Positions 525-37,520 are shown, numbered from the stretch's first letter. The stretch is 37,785 bases of DNA from an uncultured Deinococcales bacterium (GCA_964244895.1 CAXTKV010000024.1:1-37785), one strand, 5' to 3'. The notes: generated by a model not told the origin, from the sequence alone. Program-made: numbers and translations.

Positions 525-546
525 CGTCTGGGACGGTGTTCTTGAG
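525..546. repeat. CGT-N5-ACG element, right arm
   Basis: CGTCTGGGACGGTGTTCTTGAG. Confidence 0.75.
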
Positions 547-633
547 TTTCATGTCGGCGAAAGCCTTTTCGGGAGCTCAGGGCGACAGCCTCATGTTGCC
601 TCTGAGGCGTTTGAAGACAAAATTGAGAACCGC

Positions 634-662
634 TTGCGCGCCCGAATCGGCTGTGCTAATCT
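634..662 (+). promoter_or_regulatory. sigma70-type promoter of rplJL
   Basis: TTGCGC (634-639), 17 bp spacer, TAATCT (657-662) with an extended TG. Confidence 0.6.
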
Positions 663-737
663 TCGCGGGCTCGGGTGTTCCCGAGCGTTCCCCTCGCGGT
701 GCGAACCCGCTGCAACACGGGTCACGAGGAGAAGGCG

Positions 738-835
738 TTCGAGACAGCGGGGGCCGCCAGGCTCAAAGATCCCGCCGAGACGCGCGACAAGACTGAAATT
801 CTTCAGAAGACTTGTGCCGCGTTTTGAGGTTGAAG
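738..835 (+). promoter_or_regulatory. ribosomal protein L10 leader (autogenous control element)
   Basis: GAGACAGCGGG...CCCGCCGAG pattern resembling known L10 leaders, in the 5' UTR of rplJ. Boundaries approximate. Confidence 0.65.
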
Positions 836-963
836 CCTCCGGTAACGCGGTGTTTTTGTTATCGGATCATTGCGAACCGAACGACCCGGCCTCAATCGCG
901 CACCACCTCAAACTTCAGCTCCAGTGATTGAACGCCAGGACGCCAGGATCGTGGGAGGAAAAC

Positions 964-1479
964 GTGGCGAACGCAAAGAACACGGAATCACTCGCCATGC
1001 TTCGCGGGGCCTTGAAGGGCCGCACGAACTTCTTCCTCGTGGATTACCAGGGCCTTTCCAGTGAGGGATTGGGTCAACTTCGCAAGGAGCTGCGCGGACA
1101 AGGCGCAAAACTTCTGGTCGCGAAGAACACGATCATCAACCTGGCGCTGAAGGACGGTGGCTTCGATTTTGCCAACGCCCTCAAAGGCCCGAGCGCACTC
1201 GTGCTGATCGACACCGACCCGGTCGGTGCAGCCAAGGCGCTCACGGAATTTGCGAAGAAGAACGACAAGGGCATCCCCACCGCCAAAGGCGGCGTCCTTG
1301 AAGGTTCGGTCATCAACGCGAAGCAACTCGAGGATGTCGCCAAGCTGCCCTCGAAGAACGAATTGCGCGCGGAACTCGTTGGAGTGCTCGAAGCGACGCA
1401 ATCGAACTTCGTCAGCGTGCTGGGTGGCAAGCAGCAGGAACTCGTCGGCATCCTGGATGCCAAAGTCCAGAAGGGCTAA
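964..1479 (+). CDS. rplJ: 50S ribosomal protein L10
   Basis: Motifs DYQGL, LRKELR, KNT and LPSKNEL. GTG start at 964 after a GGAGG RBS. Confidence 0.97.
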   Translation: MANAKNTESLAMLRGALKGRTNFFLVDYQGLSSEGLGQLRKELRGQGAKLLVAKNTIINLALKDGGFDFANALKGPSALVLIDTDPVGAAKALTEFAKKNDKGIPTAKGGVLEGSVINAKQLEDVAKLPSKNELRAELVGVLEATQSNFVSVLGGKQQELVGILDAKVQKG

Positions 1480-1571
1480 ACACCCCGAAGGATCGGCAAA
1501 CAACCCGAGCCCACCGCTCGGACGATCCTGGCGCAGCCAGGTCGGATCGAGCCAATCAAAAGGAGTGAATC

Positions 1572-1946
1572 ATGGCTTTCGACAAGGCACGTATCGTTGA
1601 AGAACTCAGCAGCGCCACCATCCTCGAGATCAAGGATTTGATCGACACCCTGAAAGAAACCTGGGGCGTGACCGCCGCCGTCGCCGTGGCTTCCGGTCCC
1701 GCCGCCGCTGCCGCACCCGCCGCCGCCGTCGAAGAGCAGACCGAGTTCGACGTGATCCTCAAAGACGCGGGCGCGAACAAGATCAACGTCATCAAGGAAG
1801 TCCGCGCCATCACCGGGTTAGGGCTGAAGGAAGCCAAGGATTTGACGGAAGCGGGCGGAGCCGTCAAGGAAGGCATCACCAAGGAAGACGCCGCCAAGTT
1901 CAAGGCCCAGCTCGAGGCCGCAGGCGCGACCGTCGAAGTCAAGTAA
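1572..1946 (+). CDS. rplL: 50S ribosomal protein L7/L12
   Basis: [10 protein letters not shown]...[22 protein letters not shown]...[16 protein letters not shown]. Confidence 0.99.
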
Positions 1947-1962
1947 TTTCAAGACTTGGATC

Positions 1963-1989
1963 AAAGAGGCCGGGTTCCCGGCCTCTTTT
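1963..1989 (+). terminator. intrinsic terminator after rplL
   Basis: AAAGAGGCCGGG-TT-CCCGGCCTCTTTT. Confidence 0.85.
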
Positions 1990-2013
1990 CGTTTGGAAGC
2001 TCAAACGTTTGGT

Positions 2014-2062
2014 CTCGAGAACACCGTCCTGCGCGCGAATTTGAGAATGCGTACAGGAGGTC
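2014..2062. repeat. CGT-N5-ACG element, degenerate right arm, 25 bp core spacing
   Basis: CTCGAGAACACCGTCCTGCGCG...GCGTACAGGAGGTC. Confidence 0.7.
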
Positions 2063-2143
2063 GCGCTTGTGGCGACACAGCTCGATCCGCAAATTCTGGC
2101 CGACGCCAGTTGACCGGGCGATTCTCATGCGCGATCAACTCAC

Positions 2144-2188
2144 CCGGAGAGGTTCCGCACTCGGGTCCGGAGAGGTTCCGCACTCGGG
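2144..2188. repeat. tandem 22-bp duplication
   Basis: CCGGAGAGGTTCCGCACTCGGG at 2144-2165 and 2167-2188. Confidence 0.9.
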
Positions 2189-2208
2189 CATTGATCTTTC
2201 GAGTTTTA

Positions 2209-2257
2209 GAGAACACCGTTCAGCGCGTATCTCAGGACTCGCGTGCTGGACGGTGTT
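2209..2257. repeat. CGT-N5-ACG element, 25 bp
   Basis: GAGAACACCGTTCAGCGCG...GCGTGCTGGACGGTGTT. Confidence 0.85.
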
Positions 2258-2265
2258 GTTCGTGC

Positions 2266-3723
2266 TTACAGCTTCGGGCGCAATGCCCAGGCCTCGAGCG
2301 AGACCAACCGCGCCTGGCCGCCCACCGCGTACAGCTCCAGGCTATCGTCTTCGGGTCGGGGAAAGATCAGGTCCGAAATCACGGTTCGCCCACCGTTGGC
2401 GAAGACCTCCACGGAACACGCATCCACGAAAACGTGAAACGAGACGCGCCCCTCAATGGCGGGCATCTGGGCGCTGTGCCGCCCCGGAAATTCCGGGCTG
2501 AAATCCACAGAACCCGAACGGCTGCGATCCACGTACAGGCTTTGCGTCAGCGCGTCGTAGCCGACCAGCGTTTCGGCATCTTGTCCGACCCGTAACTTGA
2601 GGCCGAACTCGGTCGCGGTCGAAGGCTCGAACTCCGCGATGATCTCGAGGGCGTCACCCCGGATGGGCAGCGGTCTCGCACCCTCGAGCAGCGCACCGCT
2701 CAGGCTGTAATGCTCGCCGCGCGCCCGCTCGAGTTCCCGAACGGGTTGTTGCACCAGCCGAATCTCGTTCCCAATTTGCTGCAGCGTCACCGTGCGCGGG
2801 ATGCTCATCATGCCGCGCCACGGTCGCGTTGGCGTCAGGTGCGCGTACTGCCAGTTGCTCATCCAGGCCAGCCAGATGCGGCGACCGTCTTGCGCGGGCA
2901 GATCCGACCACGAGACCGCCGCGTAAAAATCCTTGCCGCCGTCAATCCAGTTGGGTTCAGCCTGCGGGTCGTCGGGCACGAACCGCTGACCATCGAACTG
3001 CCCGATGAAATACTGCCCAGCCGAGCCCCCGAACGGCCCACCAGCGCCCACGTCGACCTTGAGCACCCAGCGCGTCCGGGTCGGATCGCCGTTTATGGGC
3101 AACTCGAACAGCTCGGGAACTTCCCAGACCCCGCCGACCGAACCAGCCGGGCCGAAATCGCTCAGGTGCGACCAGCTCTTGAGGTCGCTCGAGCCGTAAA
3201 ACTGAACCCGGTAATCGTTGGCCAGCACCAGCACCATGATCCAGCGCTGACTGGGCGCGTGCCAGAAGACTTTCGGATCGCGGAAGTCCTTCTGGTTGAT
3301 GTCCAGCACCGGGTTGCCCGCGTACAGATTCCAGCTGCGCCCGCGGTCGGTGCTGTAGGCCAGGCGTTGATCCTCGAGCGATTTGCCGTCGTGATGCCCG
3401 GTGAACGCGATCACCAGCGGCGGTTGTCCATCGATGCCCAAGCCGCTCGAGTTTTCCCAATCCACGACCGCGCACCCGGAAAACGCCATGATGCCGCCCT
3501 GAAACGGGATGGCGACCGGAAGCTGATCCCAGTGCAGCAGATCGCGGCTGACCGCGTGACCCCAACTGATGTTGCCGGGCGCGTCCGCGAGCGGGTTGTG
3601 CTGAAAGAACAGGTGGTATTCGCCGTCGACATAAACCAGGCCGTTCGGGTCGTTGATCCAGTGGCGTTCGGGCGTGAAGTGAAATTCGGGACGGCTCGAG
3701 TCGGGGTTTTCCACGGTCATCAC
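2266..3723 (-). CDS. GH32 beta-fructosidase (levanase/exo-inulinase/invertase-like)
   Basis: WINDPNG nucleophile motif, WGHAVS, FSG, FRDPKV, WEVPE acid/base motif, and C-terminal SVEVF beta-sandwich. No signal peptide. Start GTG 3723 or ATG 3720. Confidence 0.93.
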   Translation of the reverse strand: MMTVENPDSSRPEFHFTPERHWINDPNGLVYVDGEYHLFFQHNPLADAPGNISWGHAVSRDLLHWDQLPVAIPFQGGIMAFSGCAVVDWENSSGLGIDGQPPLVIAFTGHHDGKSLEDQRLAYSTDRGRSWNLYAGNPVLDINQKDFRDPKVFWHAPSQRWIMVLVLANDYRVQFYGSSDLKSWSHLSDFGPAGSVGGVWEVPELFELPINGDPTRTRWVLKVDVGAGGPFGGSAGQYFIGQFDGQRFVPDDPQAEPNWIDGGKDFYAAVSWSDLPAQDGRRIWLAWMSNWQYAHLTPTRPWRGMMSIPRTVTLQQIGNEIRLVQQPVRELERARGEHYSLSGALLEGARPLPIRGDALEIIAEFEPSTATEFGLKLRVGQDAETLVGYDALTQSLYVDRSRSGSVDFSPEFPGRHSAQMPAIEGRVSFHVFVDACSVEVFANGGRTVISDLIFPRPEDDSLELYAVGGQARLVSLEAWALRPKL

Positions 3724-3738
3724 GCGATCCTTGAGCGA

Positions 3739-3795
3739 AAAGACCGTCCTGGACGCGAAATCTGGATATCAATTTTTGCGTCCAGGACGGTGTTC
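3739..3795. repeat. CGT-N5-ACG element, 34 bp
   Basis: AAAGACCGTCCTGGACGC...GCGTCCAGGACGGTGTTC. Confidence 0.9.
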
Positions 3796-3821
3796 CTAAA
3801 CCTGGCTCGAGCATCCAATCC

Positions 3822-4709
3822 TTAGCCCTTGACGCTGCCCGCCAACATGCCGCGCACGAAGTACCGCTGGAACGCGATAAACACGAACAATGGTAAAGCC
3901 ATCGAAACGAACGCGCCAGCCGTCAAGAGCGTCCAGTTGGCCGCGTACGTGCCCAGCATCCCCATGATCCGCTGCGGCAGCACCACCAGGTTCTGCTTGT
4001 CGCCCAGGAACACCAGCGGAATCAGCAGGCCGTTCCAGACCCACAAGAACTGAAAAATCGCGAACGATGCGAAGGCCGGAACGGACAGCGGCACGACCAG
4101 CTTGGCGAACATCACCGGGTGCGATGCGCCATCCACGACCGCCGATTCAAAGACTTCCCTGGGCAACGTCACGATGTAGTTGTAGAGCAAGTACGTGGCC
4201 AGCGACAACCCAAAGCCGGTGTTGGCCAGCCAGACGCCCAAAAACGTGCCGTTCAAACCCAACGCGCGGTAGTCGCGCAGAATTGGAATCAAGGACATCT
4301 GCAAAGGCACGACCAAGAGGGCCACCAGAATCATGAACAAAATCTTGCGCCCCGGAAAAGTCATCCAGGCGAAAGCGTATGCAGCCAACGCCGCCAGGAA
4401 GATCGGAATCACAGTCGAAGGAACCGACATGATCACGGTGTTCAAAAACGCCTGATTGAGGTTGGTCGACGAAGCCGTGTTGCTGGCCGTACCGCCGTCC
4501 GTCCCCAGGACTTGGGCGTAATTTTGCAAGGTAAAACCGCCGTGATTCCCGGTGAAAACCGTCCACCAGCCGCTCGAGTTGACATCATCTGGAACCCGAA
4601 TCGAAGTGATCAACAAACCCAGCGTCGGGATCGTCCAGACGATCACGATCAAGATCAGCACACCGTAAATAACGATTTGTGAAATCGGGTTGAGCTTTTG
4701 TGCGACCAT
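3822..4709 (-). CDS. carbohydrate ABC transporter permease (MalG/AglG-like)
   Basis: EAA loop ESAVVDGAS, FQFLWVWN, FQRYFVRGMLAGSVKG. Confidence 0.93.
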   Translation of the reverse strand: MVAQKLNPISQIVIYGVLILIVIVWTIPTLGLLITSIRVPDDVNSSGWWTVFTGNHGGFTLQNYAQVLGTDGGTASNTASSTNLNQAFLNTVIMSVPSTVIPIFLAALAAYAFAWMTFPGRKILFMILVALLVVPLQMSLIPILRDYRALGLNGTFLGVWLANTGFGLSLATYLLYNYIVTLPREVFESAVVDGASHPVMFAKLVVPLSVPAFASFAIFQFLWVWNGLLIPLVFLGDKQNLVVLPQRIMGMLGTYAANWTLLTAGAFVSMALPLFVFIAFQRYFVRGMLAGSVKG

Positions 4710-4804
4710 TCGTGTCGGCTCCTTCGTTTGAACGGCACCCCAGAATTTCGAATTTCTCAGACCTTGCGCGAACGCCTCAGCTCGAGCCGAGGATCATACG
4801 GCGC

Positions 4805-5908
4805 TCAGAGCCTCGCGTCCTTGCTGAAATCGCGGATGTTGTAGTACACGACGGGCAGCACGGCCAGCAGCAGCACCATCGCGACCGCCGCGCCGCGCCC
4901 GTAGTCGAAACTTCGGAAGGTCTGCGTGTACTGCTCGTTGGCGATGATTTGCGTGCCAAAATTTCCGCCCGTCATGGCGAACACGATGTCGAAAACCTTC
5001 AGCGTGCCAATCACGATGGTGGTCGAAACCGCGATCAGCGTGCCCTGAATGTACGGGATGGTGATCTTGAAGAAACTCTGAAGTTCGGTGGCTCCGTCGA
5101 TCCGGGCCGCCTCCAGAAGCTCTGAGGGCAAGCCCTTGATGGCCGCAGAGAACACCACCAGCGCGAACCCGGTCTGCATCCAGATCAAAATCACGATCAA
5201 GAGGTACGTGTTCAAACCTCTGACGGTCAACCACGGTTGGGGTTGACCCCCGAAGGCCGTCTGGATGGCGTTCAGCAGCCCGATCTGATTTGCGCCCGGA
5301 TTGTAGGCGTACACCAGCTTCCAGACGGCGGACGCGGCGATCATGCTGATGGCCATCGGCAAGAACACCAGGGTTTTGACGCTGACCTCGAACCCCGCCC
5401 TGGTGCGATCCGCCAGCGCCGCGATCAACAAACCCAGAACCACGCTCATGCCGCCGCCGAAGATGATCCAGATCAGGTTGTTGCGAAACGATTCGAGCAT
5501 GGCCGGGCTGGTGAAGGCGTAGGCGTAATTCTCGAGCCCGACGAATTTAACCGAATTCGCATCGAACAAGCTCAGGTAAAACGTGCGGAAGGTCGGAATC
5601 AGAAGGTAATAGAAAACCAATACCAGGGCGGGTGAAACGAACACCCACGGCATCACGCGTTGCCGCCAACGCATCGGGAAGAGTTCGACGATGGAACTGG
5701 TCAGCGTGAACAAAAACCACACGCCCCCGATGCCCCAGATCAACGAGACCGCGAAGATCAACCACGGGTTGTCGCTACCATCGCGCAAGAACAAGAAGAC
5801 CCTGCGGTAAATCTCGAGCGTGACGATCAGCACCGCGATCAGGCCGATCAATTTCCCGGTTCGGGACGAATCGACGCTCGGTTTATAGGGCGCAGTCTGG
5901 TTGATCAC
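4805..5908 (-). CDS. carbohydrate ABC transporter permease (MalF/AglF-like)
   Basis: FVGLENY, LLEAARIDGA, LKVFDIVFAMTGG, YGRGAAVAM. Confidence 0.93.
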   Translation of the reverse strand: MINQTAPYKPSVDSSRTGKLIGLIAVLIVTLEIYRRVFLFLRDGSDNPWLIFAVSLIWGIGGVWFLFTLTSSIVELFPMRWRQRVMPWVFVSPALVLVFYYLLIPTFRTFYLSLFDANSVKFVGLENYAYAFTSPAMLESFRNNLIWIIFGGGMSVVLGLLIAALADRTRAGFEVSVKTLVFLPMAISMIAASAVWKLVYAYNPGANQIGLLNAIQTAFGGQPQPWLTVRGLNTYLLIVILIWMQTGFALVVFSAAIKGLPSELLEAARIDGATELQSFFKITIPYIQGTLIAVSTTIVIGTLKVFDIVFAMTGGNFGTQIIANEQYTQTFRSFDYGRGAAVAMVLLLAVLPVVYYNIRDFSKDARL

Positions 5909-6002
5909 GCGATTCTCCTCTGCAACACGAGTCGAGCTTAAAACGCCCAGGCGGACTTGAGAATTGCCATCGAGCTGTTATTGAACGTCTCAGTTTATGA
6001 AA

Positions 6003-6034: not shown

Positions 6035-6045
6035 AAAAGTGGTGC

Positions 6046-8726: not shown

Positions 8727-8776
8727 AAGACCGTCCCAGGCGGTGTTATCTCCAATAACGCGTGCTGGACGGTCTT
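8727..8776. repeat. CGT-N5-ACG element, 29 bp
   Basis: AAGACCGTCCCAGGCG...CGTGCTGGACGGTCTT. Confidence 0.85.
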
Positions 8777-10090: not shown

Positions 10091-10143
10091 CTCGAGAAGA
10101 CCGTCCGGGACGCGTTCACTAAAATACTGTCCTGGACGGTGTT
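10091..10143. repeat. CGT-N5-ACG element, 26 bp
   Basis: CTCGAGAAGACCGTCCGGGACGC...TGTCCTGGACGGTGTT. Confidence 0.88.
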
Positions 10144-12143: not shown

Positions 12144-12162
12144 ACGACATCTTTGGCCTTTA

Positions 12163-12208
12163 GAGCACCGTCCAGCACGGTGTTCTTTTTTTGCGTCCAG
12201 GACGGTAT
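12163..12208. repeat. CGT-N5-ACG element, 25 bp
   Basis: GAGCACCGTCCAGCACGGTGTTC...GCGTCCAGGACGGTAT. Confidence 0.85.
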
Positions 12209-12437
12209 CGCGCTTCAGGATGCCGTAAGGGACACTCGGGTTGGCTCTCGAGTCACCGCGCCCGATCAGCATCGCACGCGAGATTGCGCCTCAGCTTTCT
12301 CGGAATGATCGTCGGTAGCATCGCCGCATGATTGCTGAACGCGAATCTCGAGCCTTATCTGGAAAACATCATCAGGCCGGAAACGCGGCTGTGACGGTTT
12401 CCCTCGAGCCCTGGAGACTCAACGTATGATGGGCGCG

Positions 12438-14314: not shown

Positions 14315-14366
14315 GAGAACACCGTCCAGCACGCATTCCAGGATTCGTGTGCTGGACGGTGTTCTC
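14315..14366. repeat. CGT-N5-ACG element, 25 bp
   Basis: GAGAACACCGTCCAGCACGC...GTGTGCTGGACGGTGTTCTC. Confidence 0.92.
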
Positions 14367-15766: not shown

Positions 15767-15818
15767 AAACACCGTCCCGCACGCATTCTCGAGAACACCG
15801 TCCTGGACGGTGTTCTCG
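15767..15818. repeat. CGT-N5-ACG element, 26 bp, second unit a perfect palindrome
   Basis: AAACACCGTCCCGCACGC then CGAGAACACCGTCC-T-GGACGGTGTTCTCG. Confidence 0.92.
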
Positions 15819-18231: not shown

Positions 18232-18276
18232 CAGGCTCGAGCCGCGCGTGCTTTCACTCGAGGAGCCTCGAGATTC

Positions 18277-18294
18277 GCGTCTCGGACGGTGTTC
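18277..18294. repeat. CGT-N5-ACG element, right arm
   Basis: GCGTCTCGGACGGTGTTC. Confidence 0.7.
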
Positions 18295-21729: not shown

Positions 21730-21808
21730 TGTCCGGGACGGTGATCCTGACCCGAGGGAAAGCCGCAAGCCGCAAGCCGCGAGCCGCGAGGAACACCGTC
21801 CGGGACGC
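21730..21808. repeat. two arms tail-to-tail around an AGCCGC(A/G) heptamer array
   Basis: TGTCCGGGACGGTGAT; AGCCGCA AGCCGCA AGCCGCG AGCCGCG; GAACACCGTCCGGGACGC. Confidence 0.85.
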
Positions 21809-21823
21809 AGGGATTGAACCACG

Positions 21824-21854
21824 AAAAAGCCCGTCCCAGACGGGACGGGCTTTT
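21824..21854 (-). terminator. terminator after skp (bidirectional shape)
   Basis: AAAAAGCCCGTCCC-AGAC-GGGACGGGCTTTT. Confidence 0.8.
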
Positions 21855-22626: not shown

Positions 22627-22655
22627 AAAAGACCGTCCCAGACGCTTTTCTCGAG
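22627..22655. repeat. CGT-N5-ACG element, left arm
   Basis: AAAAGACCGTCCCAGACGCTTTTCTCGAG. Confidence 0.8.
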
Positions 22656-24073: not shown

Positions 24074-24125
24074 AAGAACACCGTCCCGCACGCGATTTCA
24101 AATATGCGTGCGGGACGGTGTTCTT
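24074..24125. repeat. CGT-N5-ACG element, 25 bp, perfect 20-bp inverted repeat
   Basis: AAGAACACCGTCCCGCACGC-GATTTCAAATAT-GCGTGCGGGACGGTGTTCTT. Confidence 0.95.
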
Positions 24126-25316: not shown

Positions 25317-25374
25317 GAACACCGTCTCAGACGCTCTTTCTACATCTCGAGAAACGCCGTGCTGGGCGGTGTTC
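25317..25374. repeat. CGT-N5-ACG element, 35 bp
   Basis: GAACACCGTCTCAGACGC...CGTGCTGGGCGGTGTTC. Confidence 0.85.
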
Positions 25375-26077: not shown

Positions 26078-26734
<657 letters not shown>

Positions 26735-27806: not shown

Positions 27807-27860
27807 CTCGAGAACACCGTCCTGGACGCATTTCCTTACTTGCGTGCTGGACGGTGTTCT
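27807..27860. repeat. CGT-N5-ACG element, 25 bp
   Basis: CTCGAGAACACCGTCCTGGACGCA...TGCGTGCTGGACGGTGTTCT. Confidence 0.92.
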
Positions 27861-28932: not shown

Positions 28933-28965
28933 CCCGAGAACACCGTCCAGTACGGTGTTCTCGGG
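28933..28965. repeat. collapsed single-core element
   Basis: CCCGAGAACACCGT-CCAGT-ACGGTGTTCTCGGG. Confidence 0.9.
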
Positions 28966-29140: not shown

Positions 29141-29188
29141 AAAGACCATCCGGGACGCAGCTTTTGACTCGCGTCCCGGACGGTCTTT
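29141..29188. repeat. CGT-N5-ACG element, 25 bp
   Basis: AAAGACCATCCGGGACGC...GCGTCCCGGACGGTCTTT. Confidence 0.88.
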
Positions 29189-30435: not shown

Positions 30436-30436
30436 G

Positions 30437-30661
30437 GGTCAGAGGTCGCGAGTCATGGGTCAGAGGTCAGAGCATTTCTGGTCGGTCAGGCTCGAGCGCA
30501 CCGTCCCGCACGCGATATAGAGAACATCGTGTGGGACGGTGTTCGTGCGTGCCACTCCGAGCGCTCCGGCGCGAGATCGCCAACCGATTTTGCTTTTCAC
30601 CCTTGACCTCTGACTCCTGAATTGTTCGACCCGCGACTCGCGACCTGTGTCCCGTGACATC
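30437..30661. repeat. composite: 26 bp element (30491-30544) inside inverted GGTCAGA-type heptamer arrays
   Basis: GGTCAGA GGTCGCG AGTCATG GGTCAGA GGTCAGA; CTCGAGCGCACCGTCCCGCACGC...CGTGTGGGACGGTGTTC; TGACCTC TGACTCC, CGACCCG CGACTCG CGACCTG. Confidence 0.85.
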
Positions 30662-30663
30662 TT

Positions 30664-32952
30664 TCACTCGAGCAGATCGCTCAGGCTGCGCGGGTTCACG
30701 TCCACGCGCACGCGAGCGCCATCGCGGAAGCGGCGGGCGGGCTCGAGGAGGTGCATCAATCGTTCCTGGGTGTCGGTGCGGATCAGCAGGTTATAGGCGT
30801 ACAGACCCTTGATGCGCGCGATCGGGGCCGGGGCTGGCCCGAGGATTTCCGCGTCGGTCGCGCCGCGATCCCGCAGCAGGGCCGCGAGCGTGTTCGCAGC
30901 GCGTTCCGCGTCCGGCGCGCGGCGCGCGGCGAGCTGCACCTGCGCGAGTTGCACGAACGGCGGGTAGTGGTGATTGCGGCGAAGCTCGAGTTCTTCTGCC
31001 GGGTACGCGGCTGCATTCTCACCGTCCAGCACGGCCCGGAGCGCCGGGTGGGTTCCCGCATACGTCTGCACCAGCAACAAGGGCGCTCGGGACGGATGCC
31101 ATTCCAGCAGCGTCCGAAGGAGCGCGTGGTAGCGCTCAGAAGACCTGAAATCCGGGTGCGTCACGAAGGTATCGGCGAACGTGAGCGCCACCAGCGCCAG
31201 GTCGGGCGGCGGCTCGAGGCTCAGCACGGCGGTCGTACCGACGATCACGCCGGGTTCACCCCGGTAGATCGTCTCGAGGTTGTCCTTGCGGTCGCGGTCG
31301 TAACGGTAAATATTCACGCCGGGAAGCAAGCGCTTGAGTTCCTCCGCGATCCATTCGCTGCCGGGACCTTTGGGCGTGAAGATCGTGCCCTCGCAGCGCG
31401 GGCAGCGCTTCTGCGGATGACCCACGTGACCGCACTGGTGGCATTCCAGCGCGCGCCGTTCCGCGTGGTAGCGCAACGGCACGTCGCAGTTCGGGCAGTA
31501 CGGCAACCAGCCGCAATCCTGGCAGCGGATCACGGCGCTGTAGCCGCGCCGGGGCGCGATCAGCACGGCCTGCCGACCGCGCTCCGCGACTTGCTTCAAA
31601 ACTTTCTTGAGCCCGGTCGAAAGCGGCCAGGATTCGCGCGCCATCGGCATCCGGGACAACGGCCCCATCTCCGGGGCTTCGGCCTGCGCGCTGTAATCCA
31701 CCACGTGCAACCGGGCGCGCGGCGGCTCGAGGACGATGCCGGGGCGCAGCAGGGATTCCACGGCGGGCACGGTTCCGGTCGTCACGACCCGCGCGCCGGA
31801 TTGTTCGGCGCGGACGCGCACGGCGTCCGGCACGAAGGTTCTGGTGCCGCCGTGCAGCTTGTACGCGTCCGAGCCCTCGTTTTCCAGCACGATCAGGGCC
31901 AGGTCGGGCAAGGGCGCGAGCAGGGCCATCGGCGTGCCAAAAACGATGTCCGTCTGCCCGTCGCGGGCGCGACGCCAGACTTCCTCGCGCTCGCGGGGGT
32001 TCAGGTCGAAATGCAGCAAGCCGGACGGTCGCACGCCGCCCAACGCCCTGAACGCCCGCTCGAGCGCCGCCCGATCCGGCGCGAGGTACAGCACCCGTCC
32101 GCGCGCGCTTTTGATCAACCTGGCCAGCGCCGCGAAGCGCTCGCCGGGCCTGCCGCCGTGAATTCTGCAATCCTGATCGGTGATTTCCAGGTCGGAATGC
32201 ACCGTCTTAGACGATACTTTCGGCGTTCTGGGTTCGGGCGGCGGCGCGAGTTCAATTGATGTTTCCGCCAGCCCGCGCCGCACCAGCGCGGTCGCGACGG
32301 CGGTGCTGACGCCCGCCTCTCGCGCCCAGGACGCCACGGATTCCGCGCGTCCCAGGCGGTGCAGCACCTCCAGGGCGCGTTTTTGCTTGGGCGTCAGCTT
32401 GAGTTTCGGGTCAACGAAAAGGGCGGGTCGCAAGACCTCGCGCTTGAGTTTCTCGAGGTGCGCAGTTTCCAGCAGCAAACCCTGCGAGCGCAAGAATTCC
32501 AGCAGCGCCGGATCGTGCCCGAGCGCGTCCGACCAGTCCGCCAGAGCTTCCGCGCCGCGCGGCAGTTCAGAAATGTTGACGCCATCCACCAGTTTGACCC
32601 GGTGATCCACGCTGGGTTCCAGCCCGAACGGCACGAAATCCGAGTACGCCAACCCGTCCGGCGCGAGCGTCATCCGGGCAACTTCCAGCACCGTCCTGCA
32701 CGCGTCCGCCGTCAGAAAAGGCGCATCGTCCAGCACGGCGATGGCTTCCTTGAGGTTCAAGCCCCGATCCTGGTTGCCCGCCAGCACCTCGACCACCGCG
32801 CCCACGCGCGACCCGCCCTGCCACGGCACCAGCACGCGACGGCCCAACGGATCGCCCTCGAACCCGTGAGGTTCGAGGAAATCGTAGGCGGGCACCGGCA
32901 GGGGGACGACGACGCGCCAGCGTCCGGGCTGGCGCGCGGGAACTCGAGACAC
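30664..32952 (-). CDS. priA: primosomal protein N' (pseudohelicase type)
   Basis: GRRVLVPW 3'-binding domain, RRGYS, four CxxC pairs, HPDFRSSER, YPPF, ILGPAPAPI. Walker A/B are degenerate. Start estimated at GTG 32952 after TACAAT. Confidence 0.9.
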   Translation of the reverse strand: MSRVPARQPGRWRVVVPLPVPAYDFLEPHGFEGDPLGRRVLVPWQGGSRVGAVVEVLAGNQDRGLNLKEAIAVLDDAPFLTADACRTVLEVARMTLAPDGLAYSDFVPFGLEPSVDHRVKLVDGVNISELPRGAEALADWSDALGHDPALLEFLRSQGLLLETAHLEKLKREVLRPALFVDPKLKLTPKQKRALEVLHRLGRAESVASWAREAGVSTAVATALVRRGLAETSIELAPPPEPRTPKVSSKTVHSDLEITDQDCRIHGGRPGERFAALARLIKSARGRVLYLAPDRAALERAFRALGGVRPSGLLHFDLNPREREEVWRRARDGQTDIVFGTPMALLAPLPDLALIVLENEGSDAYKLHGGTRTFVPDAVRVRAEQSGARVVTTGTVPAVESLLRPGIVLEPPRARLHVVDYSAQAEAPEMGPLSRMPMARESWPLSTGLKKVLKQVAERGRQAVLIAPRRGYSAVIRCQDCGWLPYCPNCDVPLRYHAERRALECHQCGHVGHPQKRCPRCEGTIFTPKGPGSEWIAEELKRLLPGVNIYRYDRDRKDNLETIYRGEPGVIVGTTAVLSLEPPPDLALVALTFADTFVTHPDFRSSERYHALLRTLLEWHPSRAPLLLVQTYAGTHPALRAVLDGENAAAYPAEELELRRNHHYPPFVQLAQVQLAARRAPDAERAANTLAALLRDRGATDAEILGPAPAPIARIKGLYAYNLLIRTDTQERLMHLLEPARRFRDGARVRVDVNPRSLSDLLE

Positions 32953-33167
32953 ACACGATTGTACCGCGCCGCTTTCCAACCCTCTCGATTCAATCCACGG
33001 TTTCCACAGCGCAACCCCAACGCTGCTTTTTGCCTCCCCCGTCAACAGAGAAGGTGGCTCGAGCATCGCCGGTTCTGCGACGTGAGAGACGGGGCTCGCG
33101 GCAACCCCTCCGTGCTGGATCAAAAACGGGCTGATGACACCTCCCGTATTTTGTAGGGGAGGACAAA

Positions 33168-33219
33168 AACACCGTCCAGCACGCGGATCGAAAATCGCGT
33201 GCTGGACGGTGTTCTCGAG
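33168..33219. repeat. CGT-N5-ACG element, 25 bp
   Basis: AACACCGTCCAGCACGCG-GATCGAAAAT-CGCGTGCTGGACGGTGTTCTCGAG. Confidence 0.95.
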
Positions 33220-33230
33220 CAGGGAACATC

Positions 33231-33257
33231 AAAAAAGCGCGCCCCGTGGGGCGCGCT
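33231..33257 (-). terminator. intrinsic terminator after the BMP gene
   Basis: On the minus strand: AGCGCGCCCC-AC-GGGGCGCGCT-TTTTT. Confidence 0.8.
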
Positions 33258-33273
33258 CGATGTTGCGGCGTGC

Positions 33274-34425
33274 TTACTTCTCGGGTTCGTTCGGCCACGG
33301 GCCGACCACGCCAGCGGCGGCCCACTCGAGGCTGGTCAAGTCGCCGACGGTCGCGGTTTTGCCCGCCGCGATGCGCAAGATGCCCTTGCGATCCTTGATC
33401 GGGCCAGTGTACGGATCGAAGCTCGGCTTGGCCTGGCTCATCTGCTTGAGACGCGTCAGAACCGTGTCGTAGACGGTGGTCGTGCCGAACTTCTTGGCCT
33501 TCAAGGGCGCCACGAAGGCCGGGTTGATCGGCTCGCCGACCGCGCCGCCGAGCGACACCGCTTTCTGGCCGAGCAACCACCAGTAATCGACGTTCTCGAG
33601 GTTCTTGTTGGTGTACTCGCCGGACTGGACTTTCTTGACGAAATCGATGTAGATCCCGCTCCAGTCGGCCAGTTGGCCGCTCGGCACGAACTTCGGCGCG
33701 AACTTTTCCATCGGGCTGTAGTGCGAGAACGCGATCGCGCCCTTGGCGGCGGCGGTCTGCACCACGGTCGGCGTGTCTTCGGTGAAAGCGAACGCGTCGT
33801 TGCCGTCGGCCAGCAAGGATTCGGTGGCTTCCTTGGCCTTGTTCGGGTCGAACCAGGCGTTGATCCAGCGCACGTTGACGACGGCTTTCGGGTTGACGGC
33901 TCGAGCCCCCATGGCGAAGGCGTTGATGTGGCGCTTGACTTCGGGGATCGGGAACGCGCCGACGTAGCCCAATTTATTGGTCTTGGTCAGGGCGCCCGCG
34001 ATCATGCCGTTCAGGTAGTAGACCTGGTAGAAATCCGAGAAGTACGTCGCCAGGTTCGGCGCGCGTTTGAAACCGCCCGCGTGCGCGAAGATCACGTCCG
34101 GGTACTTCTTGGCGGCCTCGACGGTGCCGTCCATGTAACCGAAACTGGTCGTGAAAATGACTTTCGCGCCGTCCTGCACGACCTTGTCGATGAACGGGCC
34201 AGCCTGGGCTTCCGGGACGCTCTCGACCTTGACGGTCTCGATGTTGGGGATGGCTTTTTCCAGGGCCAACCGACCCTGCTCGTGCGCGTAGGTCCAGCCG
34301 TAATCGCCGGGCGGGCCGATGTAGATGAACGCGACCTTGAGCTTCATCGCGTCCTGCGCGCCCGTCAGGCCGAGACCCAGCGCGGCCAGCGCCACCAAAC
34401 CGAATTTTGCGAGTGTATTGACCAT
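33274..34425 (-). CDS. BMP family ABC substrate-binding protein (purine/nucleoside)
   Basis: KVAFIYIGPPGDYGWTYAH, IFTTSFGYMD, PIPEVKRHINAF..GA, WFDP; GAGGAGG RBS; divergent from uricase. Confidence 0.92.
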   Translation of the reverse strand: MVNTLAKFGLVALAALGLGLTGAQDAMKLKVAFIYIGPPGDYGWTYAHEQGRLALEKAIPNIETVKVESVPEAQAGPFIDKVVQDGAKVIFTTSFGYMDGTVEAAKKYPDVIFAHAGGFKRAPNLATYFSDFYQVYYLNGMIAGALTKTNKLGYVGAFPIPEVKRHINAFAMGARAVNPKAVVNVRWINAWFDPNKAKEATESLLADGNDAFAFTEDTPTVVQTAAAKGAIAFSHYSPMEKFAPKFVPSGQLADWSGIYIDFVKKVQSGEYTNKNLENVDYWWLLGQKAVSLGGAVGEPINPAFVAPLKAKKFGTTTVYDTVLTRLKQMSQAKPSFDPYTGPIKDRKGILRIAAGKTATVGDLTSLEWAAAGVVGPWPNEPEK

Positions 34426-34529
34426 TCCATCTCCTCCTCGAGTCGGAACTCCGCGCGAATCATACCCGGTGTCAGGCAAAAAGTAGATACCTGATCGGGT
34501 TTGGCGTGACACCGCGAAAGTGACTGGTG

Positions 34530-34665
34530 GCCGCGAGCCATCAGCCGCAAGCCGCAAGAACACCCTCCGGCACGGTATTCCCAGGTGCATGACGACACCG
34601 TCCGGGACGGTCTTCGGCTCGAGGCTTCTCGCTCGAGGCTTGCGGCTTGCGGCTTGCGGCTCGAG
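34530..34665. repeat. composite: 35 bp element (34558-34613) inside inverted GCCGCAA/TTGCGGC heptamer arrays
   Basis: GCCGCGA GCCATCA GCCGCAA GCCGCAA; GAACACCCTCCGGCACG...ACACCGTCCGGGACGGTCTT; GGCTCGA GGCTTCT CGCTCGA (GGCTTGC)x3 GGCTCGA. Confidence 0.85.
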
Positions 34666-34706
34666 CTTATGCCTTACAATCTTGAACACGCTCCGAGGGG
34701 GATTTC

Positions 34707-35627
34707 ATGCGAACAGAGATCAGCTACGGCAAGTTCAACATCTCGTTCCACCGCACCTACGCCAGACCGCTCTCGGGCGTCAGCGCCATCCCGGAGTCGG
34801 CGTTCACGGGTCGAGGCAACGTGCTGTTCGCCGCGGACGTGGATGTCGAGGTCTTCGGGGACAACTTCTTGCCCGCCTACACGGACGGGGACAACTCGAT
34901 GGTGGTCGCCACGGACAGCATGAAAAATTTCGTGCTGACCGAATCCGCCAAGTTTGAAGGCGCGACCCTGGAAGCGTTGCTGGAATTCCTGGCGCGGCGT
35001 TTCATGGAAACCTACGCGCAGATGATGGGCATTCGCGTCAGCGCCCGCGAGTTGCCGTTTAGCGCCGCGCAGATTCCGGGTGCGAACGGTTTCGAGCCGA
35101 GCGGCCTGCTGTACGCGCCCACGCACGACGATTGCGGCACGGCCATGATCGAACTGGAGCGCTCAGAAGGTGGCGTGCGCGTGGTCGATCACCAGTGCGG
35201 ACGGATCGGGATGCAGCTTCTGAAAATCACCGGATCTTCTTTTGCGGCCTTCGTGCGCGACGATTACACGACCCTGCCGGAACTCAAGGACAGGCCATTG
35301 TTCATTCATGCCAACATCCTCTGGCGCTACAAAAGCATCAACGAACTCTTTTCCGGCGATCCCGCCAGGTACGTCGCGCCCGAGCAGATCGCGGACATCG
35401 CGCGGGTGGTCTTTCACGGCTTCAACTCGAAATCGATTCAGGAACTGGTCTACAAGATTGGCGAGCGCATCTTCGAGCGTTTCCCGCAGCTGCGCGAGCT
35501 CGCGTTCGAGGCGCAGAACCGCACCTGGGATAAGGTCGCTGAAGGCGCCGACGAGAAGATCAAGGTCTACTGGCAACCCCGCGCACCCTACGGTCACATC
35601 ACCTTGCGGATGTCCCCGGAAAGCTGA
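34707..35627 (+). CDS. pucL: urate oxidase (uricase)
   Basis: SYGK, GDNSMVVATDSMKN, LLKITGSSF..F.RDDYTTLPE..DRPL, SIQ, NRTW. Confidence 0.93.
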   Translation: MRTEISYGKFNISFHRTYARPLSGVSAIPESAFTGRGNVLFAADVDVEVFGDNFLPAYTDGDNSMVVATDSMKNFVLTESAKFEGATLEALLEFLARRFMETYAQMMGIRVSARELPFSAAQIPGANGFEPSGLLYAPTHDDCGTAMIELERSEGGVRVVDHQCGRIGMQLLKITGSSFAAFVRDDYTTLPELKDRPLFIHANILWRYKSINELFSGDPARYVAPEQIADIARVVFHGFNSKSIQELVYKIGERIFERFPQLRELAFEAQNRTWDKVAEGADEKIKVYWQPRAPYGHITLRMSPES

Positions 35628-35751
35628 TCCCGCGCGCTAGACGGGGGGACCTCGTCCGGTTCGTCCCTCGAAATCGCCGATGCTCGAGCCCCCGATTCAT
35701 CTCGAGGTCGCGCTGGCGAGCCAATTATCACCCCCGACCTCTGATCGGCAA

Positions 35752-35800
35752 AACACCGTCCCAGACGCGATTCTCCGATTCCGTCCGGGACGGTGTTCTC
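35752..35800. repeat. CGT-N5-ACG element, 25 bp
   Basis: AACACCGTCCCAGACGC...CGTCCGGGACGGTGTTCTC. Confidence 0.9.
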
Positions 35801-35840
35801 GCGCACCACACGCGGCGGCGGCGACGTGGTTTTCTAGGGC

Positions 35841-36191
35841 ATGGGAAAGCTCACCACGCACGTCCTGGATACGGCGCACGGCACGCCCGCCGCGAACCTG
35901 GAAATACGCCTGTACGCCGTGCTGAACGGTACGAAAACGCACGTCAAGACGGTGCGCACCAACGCGGACGGTCGGGTGACGGGCGCGCTCTTGGAGGGCG
36001 CAGACCTGAACGTCGGCGTTTACGAACTGGAGTTCTTCGTGGGTGCGTACTTCACCGGCAAGGGCGTGCGCGGGCTCGAGCCGAGGTTCCTGGATGTCGT
36101 ACCCGTGCGCTTCGGTGTGATGGATGGCGCGCACTATCACGTGCCGCTGCTGGTGTCGCCGTTCGGGTACAGCACCTACCGGGGCAGTTGA
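35841..36191 (+). CDS. uraH: 5-hydroxyisourate hydrolase
   Basis: LTTHVLDTAHG.PA, TNADGR, HYHVPLL.SPFGYSTYRGS. Confidence 0.96.
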   Translation: MGKLTTHVLDTAHGTPAANLEIRLYAVLNGTKTHVKTVRTNADGRVTGALLEGADLNVGVYELEFFVGAYFTGKGVRGLEPRFLDVVPVRFGVMDGAHYHVPLLVSPFGYSTYRGS

Positions 36192-36218
36192 TGAGCCCCG
36201 TTCGTTTCAGAGGGAACC

Positions 36219-37466
36219 GTGGCTGACCCGACCGCGCACGCGCTGGCCTCAGAAGCCCTGGAGCGCGTGGATGAACTGGCGCGCCACACCGAGGAACCGG
36301 GGCGTCTGACGCGCACCTACCTGAGCGCCCCGATGAAGTCCGTGCACCAGTTGCTCGAGTTCTGGATGCGCGACGCGGGCATGGCGGTGCGCGTGGACGC
36401 CGTGGGCAACGTCATCGGCAGGTTGGGAAGGGACGACCAGAAAACCCTGATCATCGGTTCGCACGTGGACACCGTGCCGAACGCCGGGCGTTTCGATGGC
36501 AACCTGGGCGTGGTGCTGGGCATCGCGGCGGCCAAAGCCATGAAGGATCGCGGCTTGCCGTTCGCGCTCGAGGTGATCGCGTTTTCCGAAGAAGAAGGTG
36601 TGCGCTTCAGCACGCCGTTCATCGGTTCCCGCGCGGTGGCGGGCACGTTCAACCCGTCCCTGCTGGATCTGGTGGACGCCAAAGGCGTGAGCTTGCGCAA
36701 GGCGATCCTGGACTTCGGCCTCGAGCCGGGCGACATTCCGCGCGCCACGTACAACGCGCAAACCCTGGTCGGGTACCTGGAAGTCCACATCGAGCAAGGC
36801 CCCGTGCTGGAGAGCCTGAACTTGCCTCTGGGCGTGGTCGAGGGCATCGCGGGGCAGACCCGATCGAACCTGGAATTCTACGGTCAGGCCGCGCACGCGG
36901 GCACGACCCCGATGCACCTGCGCCGCGACGCGCTGGCGGGCGCGGTCGCGTTCATGAATGAAATTGAACGCGTGGCCAAGGCCGCGCCGGGACTGGTCGC
37001 GACCGTCGGCAAGCTGGAGGTTTCACCCGGCGCGGGCAACGTCATTCCGGGCGATGTCAGACTCAGCCTGGACGTGCGCCACGTTTCGGACGCCATCCGA
37101 AATCGCGCGGTGGCGGAACTGCTGGACATCGCCTGGCACACCGCGCAACGCCGCAAGCTCGAGTTCAAATTCGAGACCACGCTGGAACAACCCGCGTCCT
37201 TGTGCGACGAATTGCTCTCAGATTTCCTGGCCGACGCGCTGGAAGATTCCAACTACAAGGTTCACCGTCTGCCGTCCGGCGCGGGCCACGACGCGATGAT
37301 CATGGCGGAACTGACGCGCACCGCGATGCTGTTCATCCGTTCCCCGAAAGGTTTATCTCACCACCCGGACGAGAGCGTGATCCCGACCGACGTGACCGCT
37401 GCGCTGCGCGTGATGCTGGAATTCGTCAACAAACTCGAGCGCTGGCAACGCGCCATCCCAAGTTAA
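36219..37466 (+). CDS. allC: allantoate amidohydrolase (M20)
   Basis: GSHVDTVPNAGRFDG, EEEGVRF, EVHIEQGPVLE, HAGTTPM, SGAGHDAM, SHHPDE; lies in the urate cluster. Confidence 0.9.
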   Translation: MADPTAHALASEALERVDELARHTEEPGRLTRTYLSAPMKSVHQLLEFWMRDAGMAVRVDAVGNVIGRLGRDDQKTLIIGSHVDTVPNAGRFDGNLGVVLGIAAAKAMKDRGLPFALEVIAFSEEEGVRFSTPFIGSRAVAGTFNPSLLDLVDAKGVSLRKAILDFGLEPGDIPRATYNAQTLVGYLEVHIEQGPVLESLNLPLGVVEGIAGQTRSNLEFYGQAAHAGTTPMHLRRDALAGAVAFMNEIERVAKAAPGLVATVGKLEVSPGAGNVIPGDVRLSLDVRHVSDAIRNRAVAELLDIAWHTAQRRKLEFKFETTLEQPASLCDELLSDFLADALEDSNYKVHRLPSGAGHDAMIMAELTRTAMLFIRSPKGLSHHPDESVIPTDVTAALRVMLEFVNKLERWQRAIPS

Positions 37467-37520
37467 ACACCGTCCAGCACGGTGTTCTTGGAATGCGCGC
37501 TGGACGGTCTTTTGCTCGAG
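37466..37520. repeat. CGT-N5-ACG element, 25 bp
   Basis: AACACCGTCCAGCACGGTGTTC...CGCGCTGGACGGTCTTTTGCTCGAG. Confidence 0.88.

Follow-up and report, generated by a model that had tools for sequence, protein, structure and literature searches.

Palindromic arms in the gaps between genes

The window, a stretch of 37,785 nucleotides from the draft genome of an uncultured Deinococcales bacterium (GCA_964244895.1, CAXTKV010000024.1:1-37785), carries a dense family of short palindromic units that lie mostly between genes. A sequence-only reading had described it as holding about 24 loci of a bipartite element. This was borne out by a scan with a 22-nt matrix built on (GAG)AACACCGTCCnG(G/C)ACG, which gave 45 arm centres at about 24 loci, 40 of the 45 being outside gene calls (Table 1). 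The core CGT-N5-ACG occurs 79 times in the window, compared with 18.5 ± 4.3 in shuffles, and AASACCGT-N5-ACG with at most two mismatches occurs 103 times, compared with 22.3 ± 5.0. The family also extends genome-wide: the matrix scan found 4,615 distinct centres in the whole draft (5.12 Mb, 91% complete), whereas a shuffled genome scored with the same cut-off gave 29 strand hits. The arm consensus, observed directly, is (GAG)AACACCGTCCnG(G/C)ACG(C or GTGTT), and each arm is a 21-bp palindrome that stands either alone or in an inverted pair. Core positions are 95-98% conserved among the genome-wide copies, with two conserved blocks, ACCGT and ACG(GT), about 10 bp apart within one arm; of 1,472 arms, 283 have the commonest 17-nt sequence.

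Table 1. Arms and pairs in the window, with distances given between arm centres unless stated otherwise.
Position	Feature	Detail	Basis
520..540	single arm	centre 530; right half palindromic; minus strand	matrix score 28.3
2020..2040	single arm and degenerate partner	centre 2030	motif and matrix scans
2212..2257	46-bp pair	25 bp	matrix scan
3740..3794	pair	34 bp; between two co-oriented genes	matrix scan
8727..8776	pair	29 bp (outlier); convergent gap	matrix scan
10097..10143	pair	26 bp; divergent gap	matrix scan
12164..12209	pair	cores 25 bp apart; left arm full 21-bp palindrome, then T run; right arm weaker	
14318..14363	46-bp pair	25 bp	matrix scan
15768..15814	pair	26 bp; right arm perfect 21-bp palindrome; CTCGAG between arms	
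18273..18293	single arm		matrix scan
21792..21847	pair	35 bp; right member overlaps terminator-like hairpin	
22629..22649	single arm		matrix scan
24077..24122	46-bp pair	25 bp; arms perfectly complementary	
25318..25373	56-bp pair	35 bp; CTCGAG in spacer	
26084..26171	two arms	67 bp apart (outlier)	matrix scan
27813..27858	46-bp pair	fills 58-bp convergent gap; N5 CCTGG vs GCTGG, unpaired	
28939..28959	solitary arm	full 21-bp palindrome	matrix scan
29142..29187	46-bp pair	25 bp	matrix scan
30497..30543	pair	26 bp; in gap replaced in ~92% identical relative	
33168..33213	46-bp pair	perfect arms	matrix scan
34559..34614	56-bp pair	35 bp	matrix scan
35752..35797	46-bp pair	25 bp	matrix scan
37466..37511	46-bp pair	25 bp; left arm full palindrome	

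Some loci have other small features beside them. An array of four AAGCCGC heptamers (21760-21787) lies just upstream of the pair at 21792, inverted heptamer arrays (34543-34558 and 34637-34661) flank the pair at 34559, and a separate canonical terminator on the minus strand (33235-33258) stands between the pair at 33168 and the gene.

Genes were called with a simple caller of our own (79% coding), so the gap classes are approximate. By these calls the intergenic share is 90% for all centres and 96% for strong ones, and arms are present in 79% of the gaps between convergent genes, 58% of those between tandem genes and 56% of those between divergent genes, in agreement with the initial observation that the elements occur in gaps of every orientation. 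An arm is found within 150 nt in 1,993 of 3,256 gene 3′ regions, and in 804 tandem gaps the element sits at a median of 25.5 bp past the stop codon and 105 bp ahead of the next start; no polarity of the elements relative to transcription was found. Gaps with arms are longer than gaps without, the medians being 212 versus 87 bp for tandem, 177 versus 104 bp for convergent and 343 versus 222 bp for divergent gaps, and some whole contigs of the bin have no arms.

Pair geometry, linkers and arm-to-arm pairing

A genome-wide plot of spacing, proposed as a check along with the initial reading, proved to be sharply quantised and not smooth. Distances between successive centres concentrate at 25 bp (n = 736), 26 bp (116), 35 bp (493) and 36 bp (184), with minor classes at 24 (16), 30 (29), 31 (14), 34 (37), 37 (12) and 41 bp (24), and the space between these classes is almost empty; at 27 bp, next to the main peak, there are 4 copies. 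Inward-facing half-sites pair at 0 bp (n = 401, the full palindromes), 25 bp (616), 26 bp (89), 35 bp (261) and 36 bp (121). The distances measured by hand in the window were reproduced: 25 bp at 2217, 14323, 24082, 27818, 29147, 33173, 35757 and 37471, 26 bp at 10102, 15773 and 30502, 34-35 bp at 3745, 21797, 25323 and 34564, and the outliers of 29 bp at 8732 and 67 bp at 26089, as well as the 25 bp at 12169, whose partner core at 12194 was seen by motif count, below the matrix threshold.

Copies of one spacing class have a common build. The main builds measure 46 and 56 bp, and the difference lies in a block of 10 bp at the centre: the class-35 profile best matches the class-25 profile once such a block is taken out, and in 262 of the 493 class-35 copies the best removable block begins at element position 22-24. 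The 41-bp variant, which has its own consensus, and the 30/31-bp arrangements, which are back-to-back arms, are out of phase; no periodicity is visible at larger centre distances genome-wide, and spacings of 25.5 and 35.5 bp correspond to about 2.4 and 3.4 helical turns, not to whole turns. Since there are just two major length classes, they provide only one independent 10-bp difference (35 minus 25). Of the helical quantisation originally claimed, then, the two sharp classes 10 bp apart stand, but a general rule is backed by that one difference only and the 41-bp variant does not follow it. We infer that the two spacings are two fixed geometries of a paired site, like BIME linker classes, with no continuous helical-phase rule.

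The linkers are AT-rich (56-61%), and 713 of 736 are distinct, so that their sequence varies and their length does not. They had also been called unrelated, a description that holds less well: they carry a common position-specific pattern of Y followed by R (pairwise identity 0.40-0.43, versus 0.25 when shuffled), and exact CTCGAG occurs at fixed mirror offsets in 44-47% of the 35/36-bp spacers. Even among the 105 elements with perfect arms, linker identity is only 0.50. On the flanks, CTCGAG is found on both sides of 8 elements, on the left only of 111, on the right only of 99 and on neither side of 515, which is a negative association. The hexamer is hyper-abundant in genes and gaps alike across the whole family of genomes; it is a background feature of the bacterial family, distinct from the element itself. 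It resembles HIP1 of cyanobacteria, as outlined in the cited part of PMC5861425, in being a short palindrome hyper-abundant across a genome family, but it is another word in another phylum.

As for pairing between partner arms, the covariation test suggested earlier gave no signal in class 35, where true partners mismatch at 4.35 positions out of 17 and shuffled ones at 4.30, and a weak one in class 25 (2.56 against 3.02). The class-25 gain comes mostly from a surplus of perfect copies (105, with 32 expected), and in 26-41% of cases the partner carries the change that matches an arm variant, compared with a 9-17% baseline. The N5 positions are often unpaired, as had been noted by eye, Watson-Crick pairing between arms amounting to 55% at the centre and 59% at +2. 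Sense-strand mismatches of the G:T and A:C kinds number 307 versus 320 and 216 versus 257, with no strand asymmetry of the G:U type. The median folding energy of the elements as single strands is -17.3 kcal/mol, and that of shuffles -5.1; because of this good folding and the class-25 compensation a hairpin or cruciform form may exist.

An orthologous element was found on a metagenome contig (L078) whose adjoining coding sequence is 76-87% identical. In this copy the left outer bases (10 of 10), the right arm with its flank (24 of 24 bases) and the length of 46 bp are all retained, while about half of the 13 central linker bases are changed. The comparison is of a single locus, and conservation is poor in another gap on that contig. 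A relative about 92% identical (run X1) has 125 other letters in place of the whole gap 30436-30661, element included. Given the null result in class 35, the weak covariation in class 25, the equal mismatches and the orthologous copy, sequence and length appear constrained and pairing does not, which supports the initial placing of selection on arm sequence and length above hairpin pairing.

Lineage restriction and likeness to known repeats

The arm pattern has 1,263 exact hits in its own genome, and none of the 362 other genomes compared from the order has more than 10. That set takes in one unpublished genome, G325, which has 1 hit and was used for this count alone. In a second count, the own genome had 2,170 hits and none of 30 relatives more than 20. 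Samples of 28-100 kb from five family members showed no dense repeat. Of the 363 genomes of the order, only this one carries the family. An identical 16-nt arm occurs inside an unrelated-looking repeat of about 80 nt in G189, a genome of another family. Rfam 15 families gave 0 matches in the window at the gathering score.

A cognate RAYT flanked by the motif had been suggested as something to look for, and none was found: PF01797 (Y1_Tnp, which covers RAYT and IS200/IS605 TnpA) gave no hit in the draft (91% complete) at E ≤ 0.01, the control search matching in 6 of 14 reference genomes, D. radiodurans included. An unassembled copy of a Y1 transposase may lie outside the draft. With the search for a cognate RAYT negative in the draft, strict membership in a RAYT-REP system is not supported either. 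A MITE, which should have terminal inverted repeats, a target-site duplication and a parent insertion sequence sharing its ends, was rejected, as no target duplication accompanies the elements, CTCGAG on the two flanks is negatively associated and the assembly has only 10 repeated segments of at least 300 bp.

The idea that the family resembles no known kind did not survive comparison. E. coli REPs are mostly paired inversely, with conserved REP parts and variable linkers of discrete types, and 584 of them are quoted for K-12 in the cited part of Ton-Hoang et al. (2012, PMC3333891). As described there, REP/BIME elements share with the present family short palindromic extragenic units in high copy number, inverse pairs of conserved units with variable linkers of discrete types (here 25/26 and 35/36 bp), and the occurrence of solo units. 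The present family differs from that description in that no TnpA-REP/RAYT was found in the draft; in lacking a GTAG-like tag at the 5′ foot of the palindrome, the flank consensus being (CTC)GAG-AACACC; in that each arm is itself a near-perfect 21-bp dyad; in having about eight times as many units (some 4,600 arms in 5.1 Mb) as E. coli; and in that long tandem BIME arrays were not seen in the genome. Because inverted palindromic arms with discrete linkers, placement after genes and confinement to one lineage make up the REP/BIME pattern, the family is new but of REP/BIME type.

The REPIN-RAYT systems of Pseudomonas, E. coli and Neisseria, in so far as they are covered by the cited parts of Bertels and Rainey (PMC3116915, PMC3337134), likewise have two inverted arms at a fixed distance with long-hairpin potential, restricted to one lineage and diverse in sequence. 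No RAYT was found in the draft with the present elements, however, and their whole copies are unlike. In a REPIN the doublet is what replicates, so that arms should covary and many copies agree with a master sequence; here class 25 has its weak covariation and excess of perfect copies, class 35 has no arm-to-arm covariation, and nearly every linker is unique. Closer at hand taxonomically, the SNRs of Deinococcus radiodurans (295 copies of at least 9 types, none in D. geothermalis, according to the cited portion of PMC1978522) are also lineage-specific intergenic repeat families of the same bacterial group. They are described as mosaic repeats and are set apart from the present arms by that description only; in the searched genomes of the order other than this one, the arm pattern never exceeds 10 matches.

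Alternative explanations and putative role

We consider it somewhat better than an even bet (about 0.55) that the elements are genome-specific REP/BIME-like repeats whose arms are kept by selection on their sequence, as putative protein recognition sites, and not for pairing. The family would have spread through the gaps by some copying process, since the median gap is about 70-125 bp longer with arms than without, and there are whole contigs free of arms; with almost no two linkers alike, copying of whole elements would not be recent. Purifying selection at the DNA level would afterwards have preserved the arms and the spacing.

The sharply bimodal spacing, the 10-bp distance between conserved blocks within an arm, the AT-rich linkers, the lack of covariation in the 35-bp class, the arms and length retained at one orthologous locus and the failure to find a transposase in the draft could also be read as non-mobile sites of an abundant protein that binds double-stranded DNA, two dimers in helical register fixing the 25 and 35 bp. 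We think this unlikely, as the two major classes yield a single 10-bp difference, the 41-bp class and the back-to-back arrangements are out of phase, larger distances show no periodicity and the linkers are related through CTCGAG at fixed offsets and the Y/R pattern; moreover, thousands of 17-21-bp sites in 1 of 363 genomes, together with longer gaps, point to insertion by copying. It is quite improbable that the elements are neutral relics of a decaying REPIN-like population, hairpins once copied by a RAYT-type transposase now lost or unassembled. REPIN populations do decay following RAYT loss, according to the cited part of a preprint (bioRxiv 10.1101/2021.07.10.451892), and long-hairpin potential, the excess of perfect palindromes, the partial compensation in the 25-bp class, the draft without a Y1 transposase and the scarcity of identical whole copies would all fit. 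Neutral decay, however, should hit arms and linkers equally, and here the cores are conserved far above linkers near saturation, length is retained around the 25-bp peak, the arms are identical at a locus whose neighbour genes have diverged, and a population of about 4,600 arms is very large, not shrunken.

Position close behind stop codons and in most convergent gaps would suit elements working in RNA, as intrinsic terminators or mRNA-stabilising 3′ hairpins, and by a looser test 10.9% of element-bearing 3′ regions have the element hairpin followed by a T-rich tract (for example, 12162-12186 and 15790-15818). Yet the share of elements followed by a T4 run is 6% on the sense and 4% on the antisense side, the G:T and A:C mismatches are balanced, arms are common in divergent gaps too, and a canonical terminator, where there is one as well, lies before the element in 87 cases and beyond it in 17. 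Intrinsic terminators as a class were rejected on the T4 and mismatch counts, and we regard an RNA-level role as very unlikely; the elements probably act at the DNA level. DNA uptake sequences often come as inverted pairs. That the present motif is lineage-specific, very abundant and often in inverted pairs after genes, in a genome with a ComEC gene, recalls such sequences, built up by biased uptake and recombination for natural transformation. We give this hardly any credence and rejected the class, which should span coding and non-coding DNA, as only 4-10% of arms lie within genes; nor would uptake drive be expected to produce a fixed-length paired geometry, a defined linker pattern or longer arm-bearing gaps.

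If the elements are REP/BIME-like repeats with selected arms, the conservation patterns suggest that the arms bind a protein, and they would most likely serve, with the protein bound, as boundaries or structural sites where transcription units have their 3′ ends. A more specific proposal, which we advance tentatively and hold to be rather doubtful, is that the arms are candidate docking sites, in two fixed paired geometries, for an abundant DNA-binding protein peculiar to the lineage, by which the 3′ limits of most transcription units would be marked, and that they spread like a repeat and are now maintained by the host without a RAYT or a hairpin. Were this so, the family would represent a genome-wide protein-DNA architecture, and the G189 repeat with the same 16-nt arm would imply a recognising factor that predates the expansion.

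An abundant intergenic arm and its position relative to genes

The core CGT-N5-ACG occurs 79 times in the window, against 18.5 ± 4.3 in shuffled sequence, and the longer arm pattern, allowing up to two mismatches, 103 times against 22.3. We then ran the genome-wide scan that the sequence-only reading had proposed, using a 22-nt weight matrix trained on strict hits and a threshold score of at least 11. In the draft assembly (5.12 Mb in 328 contigs, 62.7% GC, 91% complete) the matrix gave 5,641 strand hits, compared with 29 in a shuffled genome, so the motif is real and well above chance both in the window and beyond it. Behind these hits lie 4,615 distinct arm centres, of which 1,026 score on both strands, with the dyad sequence AACACCGTCCnGGACGGTGTT; the arm is therefore itself a dyad. 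The window holds 45 centres at about 24 loci, and every distance that had been measured there by hand was reproduced.

Genes were called with a simple codon-bias caller (4,311 genes, 79% coding), which agrees with the Pfam-supported ORFs in the window. By these calls, intergenic DNA contains 90% of all centres and 96% of the strong ones. As had been noted from the window, arms occupy gaps of every orientation, namely 79% of those between convergent genes, 58% of the tandem and 56% of the divergent ones, and the gaps that carry them are 70-125 bp longer at the median than arm-free ones. Over 804 tandem gaps the element lies at a median of 25.5 bp past the stop codon and 105 bp ahead of the next start, and it is closer to the stop in 75% of them. 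An arm is found within 150 nt of the gene end in 1,993 of 3,256 3′ regions, that is, after about 60% of genes. The family accounts for most of the conserved intergenic sequence of this genome and should be masked before operators or sRNAs are searched for.

Inside a priA-like gene of the window there are two arm-like cores, each with one or two mismatches to the pattern and under the matrix threshold, which either stem from an insertion that decayed and was tolerated in frame or resemble arms by chance. Elements also flank a ComEC-type competence gene (Competence, Lactamase_B and DUF4131 domains), an observation that bears solely on the idea that the repeats are DNA uptake sequences.

Features located in the window (contig C24) and arm-free stretches on other contigs of the same assembly
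Feature	Contig	Positions	Strand	Remark
ComEC-type competence gene	C24	15913-18231	minus	elements on both sides
Heptamer array	C24	21760-21787		
CTCGAG example	C24	25380-25400		
Gap replaced in a relative	C24	30436-30661		125 other letters in the relative
priA-like gene	C24	30664-32895	minus	
Arm-like cores in the priA-like gene	C24	32687-32742		35 bp apart
Terminator between gene and element	C24	33235-33258		adjoins element 33168-33213
Heptamer array	C24	34543-34558		
CTCGAG example	C24	34615-34640		
Heptamer array	C24	34637-34661		
Arm-free stretch	C5	1-55057		
Arm-free stretch	C15	2383-40409		38 kb
Arm-free stretches	C50, C130, C164, C173			

Element builds, linkers and arm pairing

Distances between successive centres are sharply bimodal across the genome, with no smooth distribution: 736 fall at 25 bp, 116 at 26 bp, 493 at 35 bp and 184 at 36 bp, with minor groups at 24, 30/31, 34, 37 and 41 bp and nearly empty intervals between them. 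An independent count of inward-facing 10-nt half-sites gave 401 at 0 bp (full palindromes), 616 at 25 bp, 89 at 26 bp, 261 at 35 bp and 121 at 36 bp, and since the picture is the same, the bimodality is not an artefact of measuring by hand. Copies of the 35-bp class (centres 35 bp apart, a 56-bp element) best fit the profile of the 25-bp class (25 bp, a 46-bp element) once 10 bp are cut from their exact centre; in 262 of the 493 copies the best block to cut starts at position 22-24. The two spacings are two builds of one element. Tandem duplication was rejected as the source of the extra 10 bp, as the elements show the same self-identity at offsets 4-14 as the between-element control. Neither a third build of 41 bp, which has 24 copies and a consensus of its own, nor the back-to-back arms at 30/31 bp are in phase with the main two. 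The helical rule that had been read into the spacing is not established.

The linkers had been described as AT-rich and mostly unrelated. They are indeed AT-rich (56-61%, against 37% for the genome) and nearly all different, with 713 distinct sequences among the 736 of the 25-bp class, but their sequence is not random, with a pairwise identity of 0.40-0.43 (0.25 when shuffled) and a pyrimidine-then-purine pattern. Of the 35/36-bp linkers, 44-47% contain an exact CTCGAG at mirror offset 11/12 or 18/19; in the 25-bp class it stands centrally in 7%.

Folded as single strands, the elements reach a median of −17.3 kcal/mol in the 25-bp class and −14.4 kcal/mol in the 35-bp class, compared with −5 to −6 kcal/mol for shuffles. 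Nevertheless, the proposal that selection acts on sequence and length more than on hairpin pairing held up when true partners were set against shuffled ones. Covariation is weak in the 25-bp class, where true partners mismatch at 2.56 of 17 positions against 3.02, and absent in the 35-bp class (4.35 against 4.30). The gap in the 25-bp class comes mainly from elements with perfect arms (105 against 32 expected); those with two or more mismatches are about as frequent as independent arms predict, and an arm variant is matched by its partner in 26-41% of cases against a baseline of 9-17%. Complementarity at linker positions is, if anything, below chance. Stem pairing is thus weakly maintained, while the core arm positions are conserved at 95-98%. 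Recent copying of whole elements does not explain this conservation, because the linkers of perfect-arm elements are only 0.50 alike.

Terminators, transposases and resemblance to REP/BIME

The RNA-level tests led us to reject intrinsic terminators as the general reading. Sense-strand mismatches in tandem gaps are equally often G:T and A:C (307 vs 320; 216 vs 257), T4 runs come after 6% of elements in the sense direction and after 4% in the other, neither arm strength nor CTCGAG position is polarised along the direction of transcription, and Rfam gave no match in the window. A strict scan of the genome yielded few canonical terminators (at 5.3% of the 3′ regions that carry an element and 7.1% of those that do not), and where both occur together the terminator is gene-proximal in 87 cases and beyond the element in 17. 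Roughly one element in ten may also serve as a terminator.

The motif had not been recognised as any of its known analogues, yet the kind is known. E. coli REP/BIME elements (PMC3333891) share with the present family the conserved palindromic units in mostly inverse pairs, the variable linkers of discrete types, the extragenic position and the restriction to a lineage. Neither the Y1 transposase nor the GTAG tag, both of which define the RAYT-REP system, was found, and the arm covariation typical of REPINs is weak. A search for a cognate RAYT with PF01797, which covers the Y1 transposases, found no match in the 91%-complete draft, while control genomes responded. Neutral decay of REPINs after RAYT loss, as treated in a preprint (bioRxiv 10.1101/2021.07.10.451892), is not the explanation here, because the arms are kept far better than the linkers. 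CTCGAG or TCGA as a target-site duplication was ruled out by an analysis of the flanking CTCGAG, and a parent insertion sequence was rejected, as a self-BLAST of the assembly yielded 10 repeated segments of at least 300 bp and no more. Taking together the REP/BIME build, the missing Y1 and GTAG, the weak covariation and the arms conserved well beyond their linkers, we therefore file the repeats as a new family of the REP/BIME kind acting at the DNA level, whose arms are most likely putative protein-recognition modules. No description of this arm family was found in the literature on Deinococcus repeats, CTCGAG/HIP and REPIN/RAYT, and the arm strings returned unrelated primers only, among the full-text matches listed.

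If this reading is right, the family would be an extreme case of the REP/BIME type, following so large a share of genes with no RAYT partner visible and with its constraint in arm sequence and spacing instead of stem pairing. It would then offer a clean system for studying which host function maintains such repeats, a question long debated for REP elements, and a 46-bp oligonucleotide could serve to isolate the putative binder.

Distribution, relatives and accompanying repeats

The exact arm pattern has 2,170 hits in this genome and at most 20 in any of 30 relatives, including 18 members of its own family; a stricter pattern has 1,263 and no more than 10 in any of 362 further genomes of the order, a set that includes the unpublished G325 (1 hit). 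No comparably dense repeat was found in 28-100 kb samples from five family members. Within the genome the arms are unevenly spread: 75 of 857 5-kb intervals are free of them, as are entire contigs such as C5 (55 kb). The arm-free stretches are normal in GC and CTCGAG density, and C5 carries ordinary sugar-metabolism and transport genes, with two histidinol dehydrogenases. These contigs could be a second replicon, DNA recently acquired from a family member, or mis-binned (contamination is estimated at 2.3%). The patchy distribution fits a resident, lineage-specific repeat missing from newly acquired or mis-binned DNA, and arm-free contigs could accordingly mark such DNA in the bin.

A metagenome scan gave at least 120 loci with arms; among the matches listed, only one, L078, has two or more, and the rest look like chance single hits. 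L078 is orthologous to contig C273 of our genome, with neighbouring coding sequence 76-87% identical, and its element stands at the same place, both copies being 46 bp long. The copies agree at all 10 left outer bases and at the 24 bases of the right arm and flank; they differ at roughly half of the 13 bases in the middle of the linker, and the gap around them aligns poorly. The comparison is of a single locus, a second gap on L078 being uninformative; still, it matches what purifying selection on arms and length predicts. Two DNA sequencing runs contained relatives only (word shares 0.10 and 0.06); one of them, X1, contained a relative at about 92% identity, along with other copies of the arm family. 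One gap of the window is replaced in that relative by 125 other letters, which may or may not include an element.

G189, from another family of the order, has 10 copies of a conserved repeat of about 80 nt (L150-L159) that holds the same 16-nt arm: AACACCGTCC(A/G)GGACG, then CAGTTTGTGTTTTT, with inverted heptamer-like arrays on its flanks. Rfam gave no match to this repeat at E ≤ 0.1, and a Y1 transposase is absent from this 99%-complete genome. The repeat may be distantly related to the element, or may hint at a factor recognising the arm that predates the expansion. A different local repeat, CTACAACGGCGCGTGATACC, occurs in 5-7 copies within 60 kb of contig C1 of the family member G010 (L012-L014).

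Period-7 arrays (AAGCCGC, AGCCTCG, AGCCGCG and others) number 291 in our genome, 173 of them intergenic; some stand inverted on both sides of an element, and similar ones lie close to the orthologous element in L078. As 78 of 286 measured arrays are within 60 bp of an arm, we rejected them as part of the element and treat them as a separate feature.

CTCGAG itself is hyper-abundant, with 21,883 sites against about 1,700 expected from base composition. This is common to the whole family (18 genomes, 12,000-35,000 sites per genome at 46-60% GC), while the palindrome GAGCTC, of the same composition, almost never occurs (0-161 sites in each relative, 568 in our genome). Of the 15,227 sites in genes, 11,218 fall in the Leu-Glu frame, and the proteins contain 18,911 Leu-Glu dipeptides where 8,935 would be expected, which suggests that a drive at the DNA level shapes protein sequence. 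The abundance resembles that of the HIP1 palindrome of cyanobacteria (PMC5861425).
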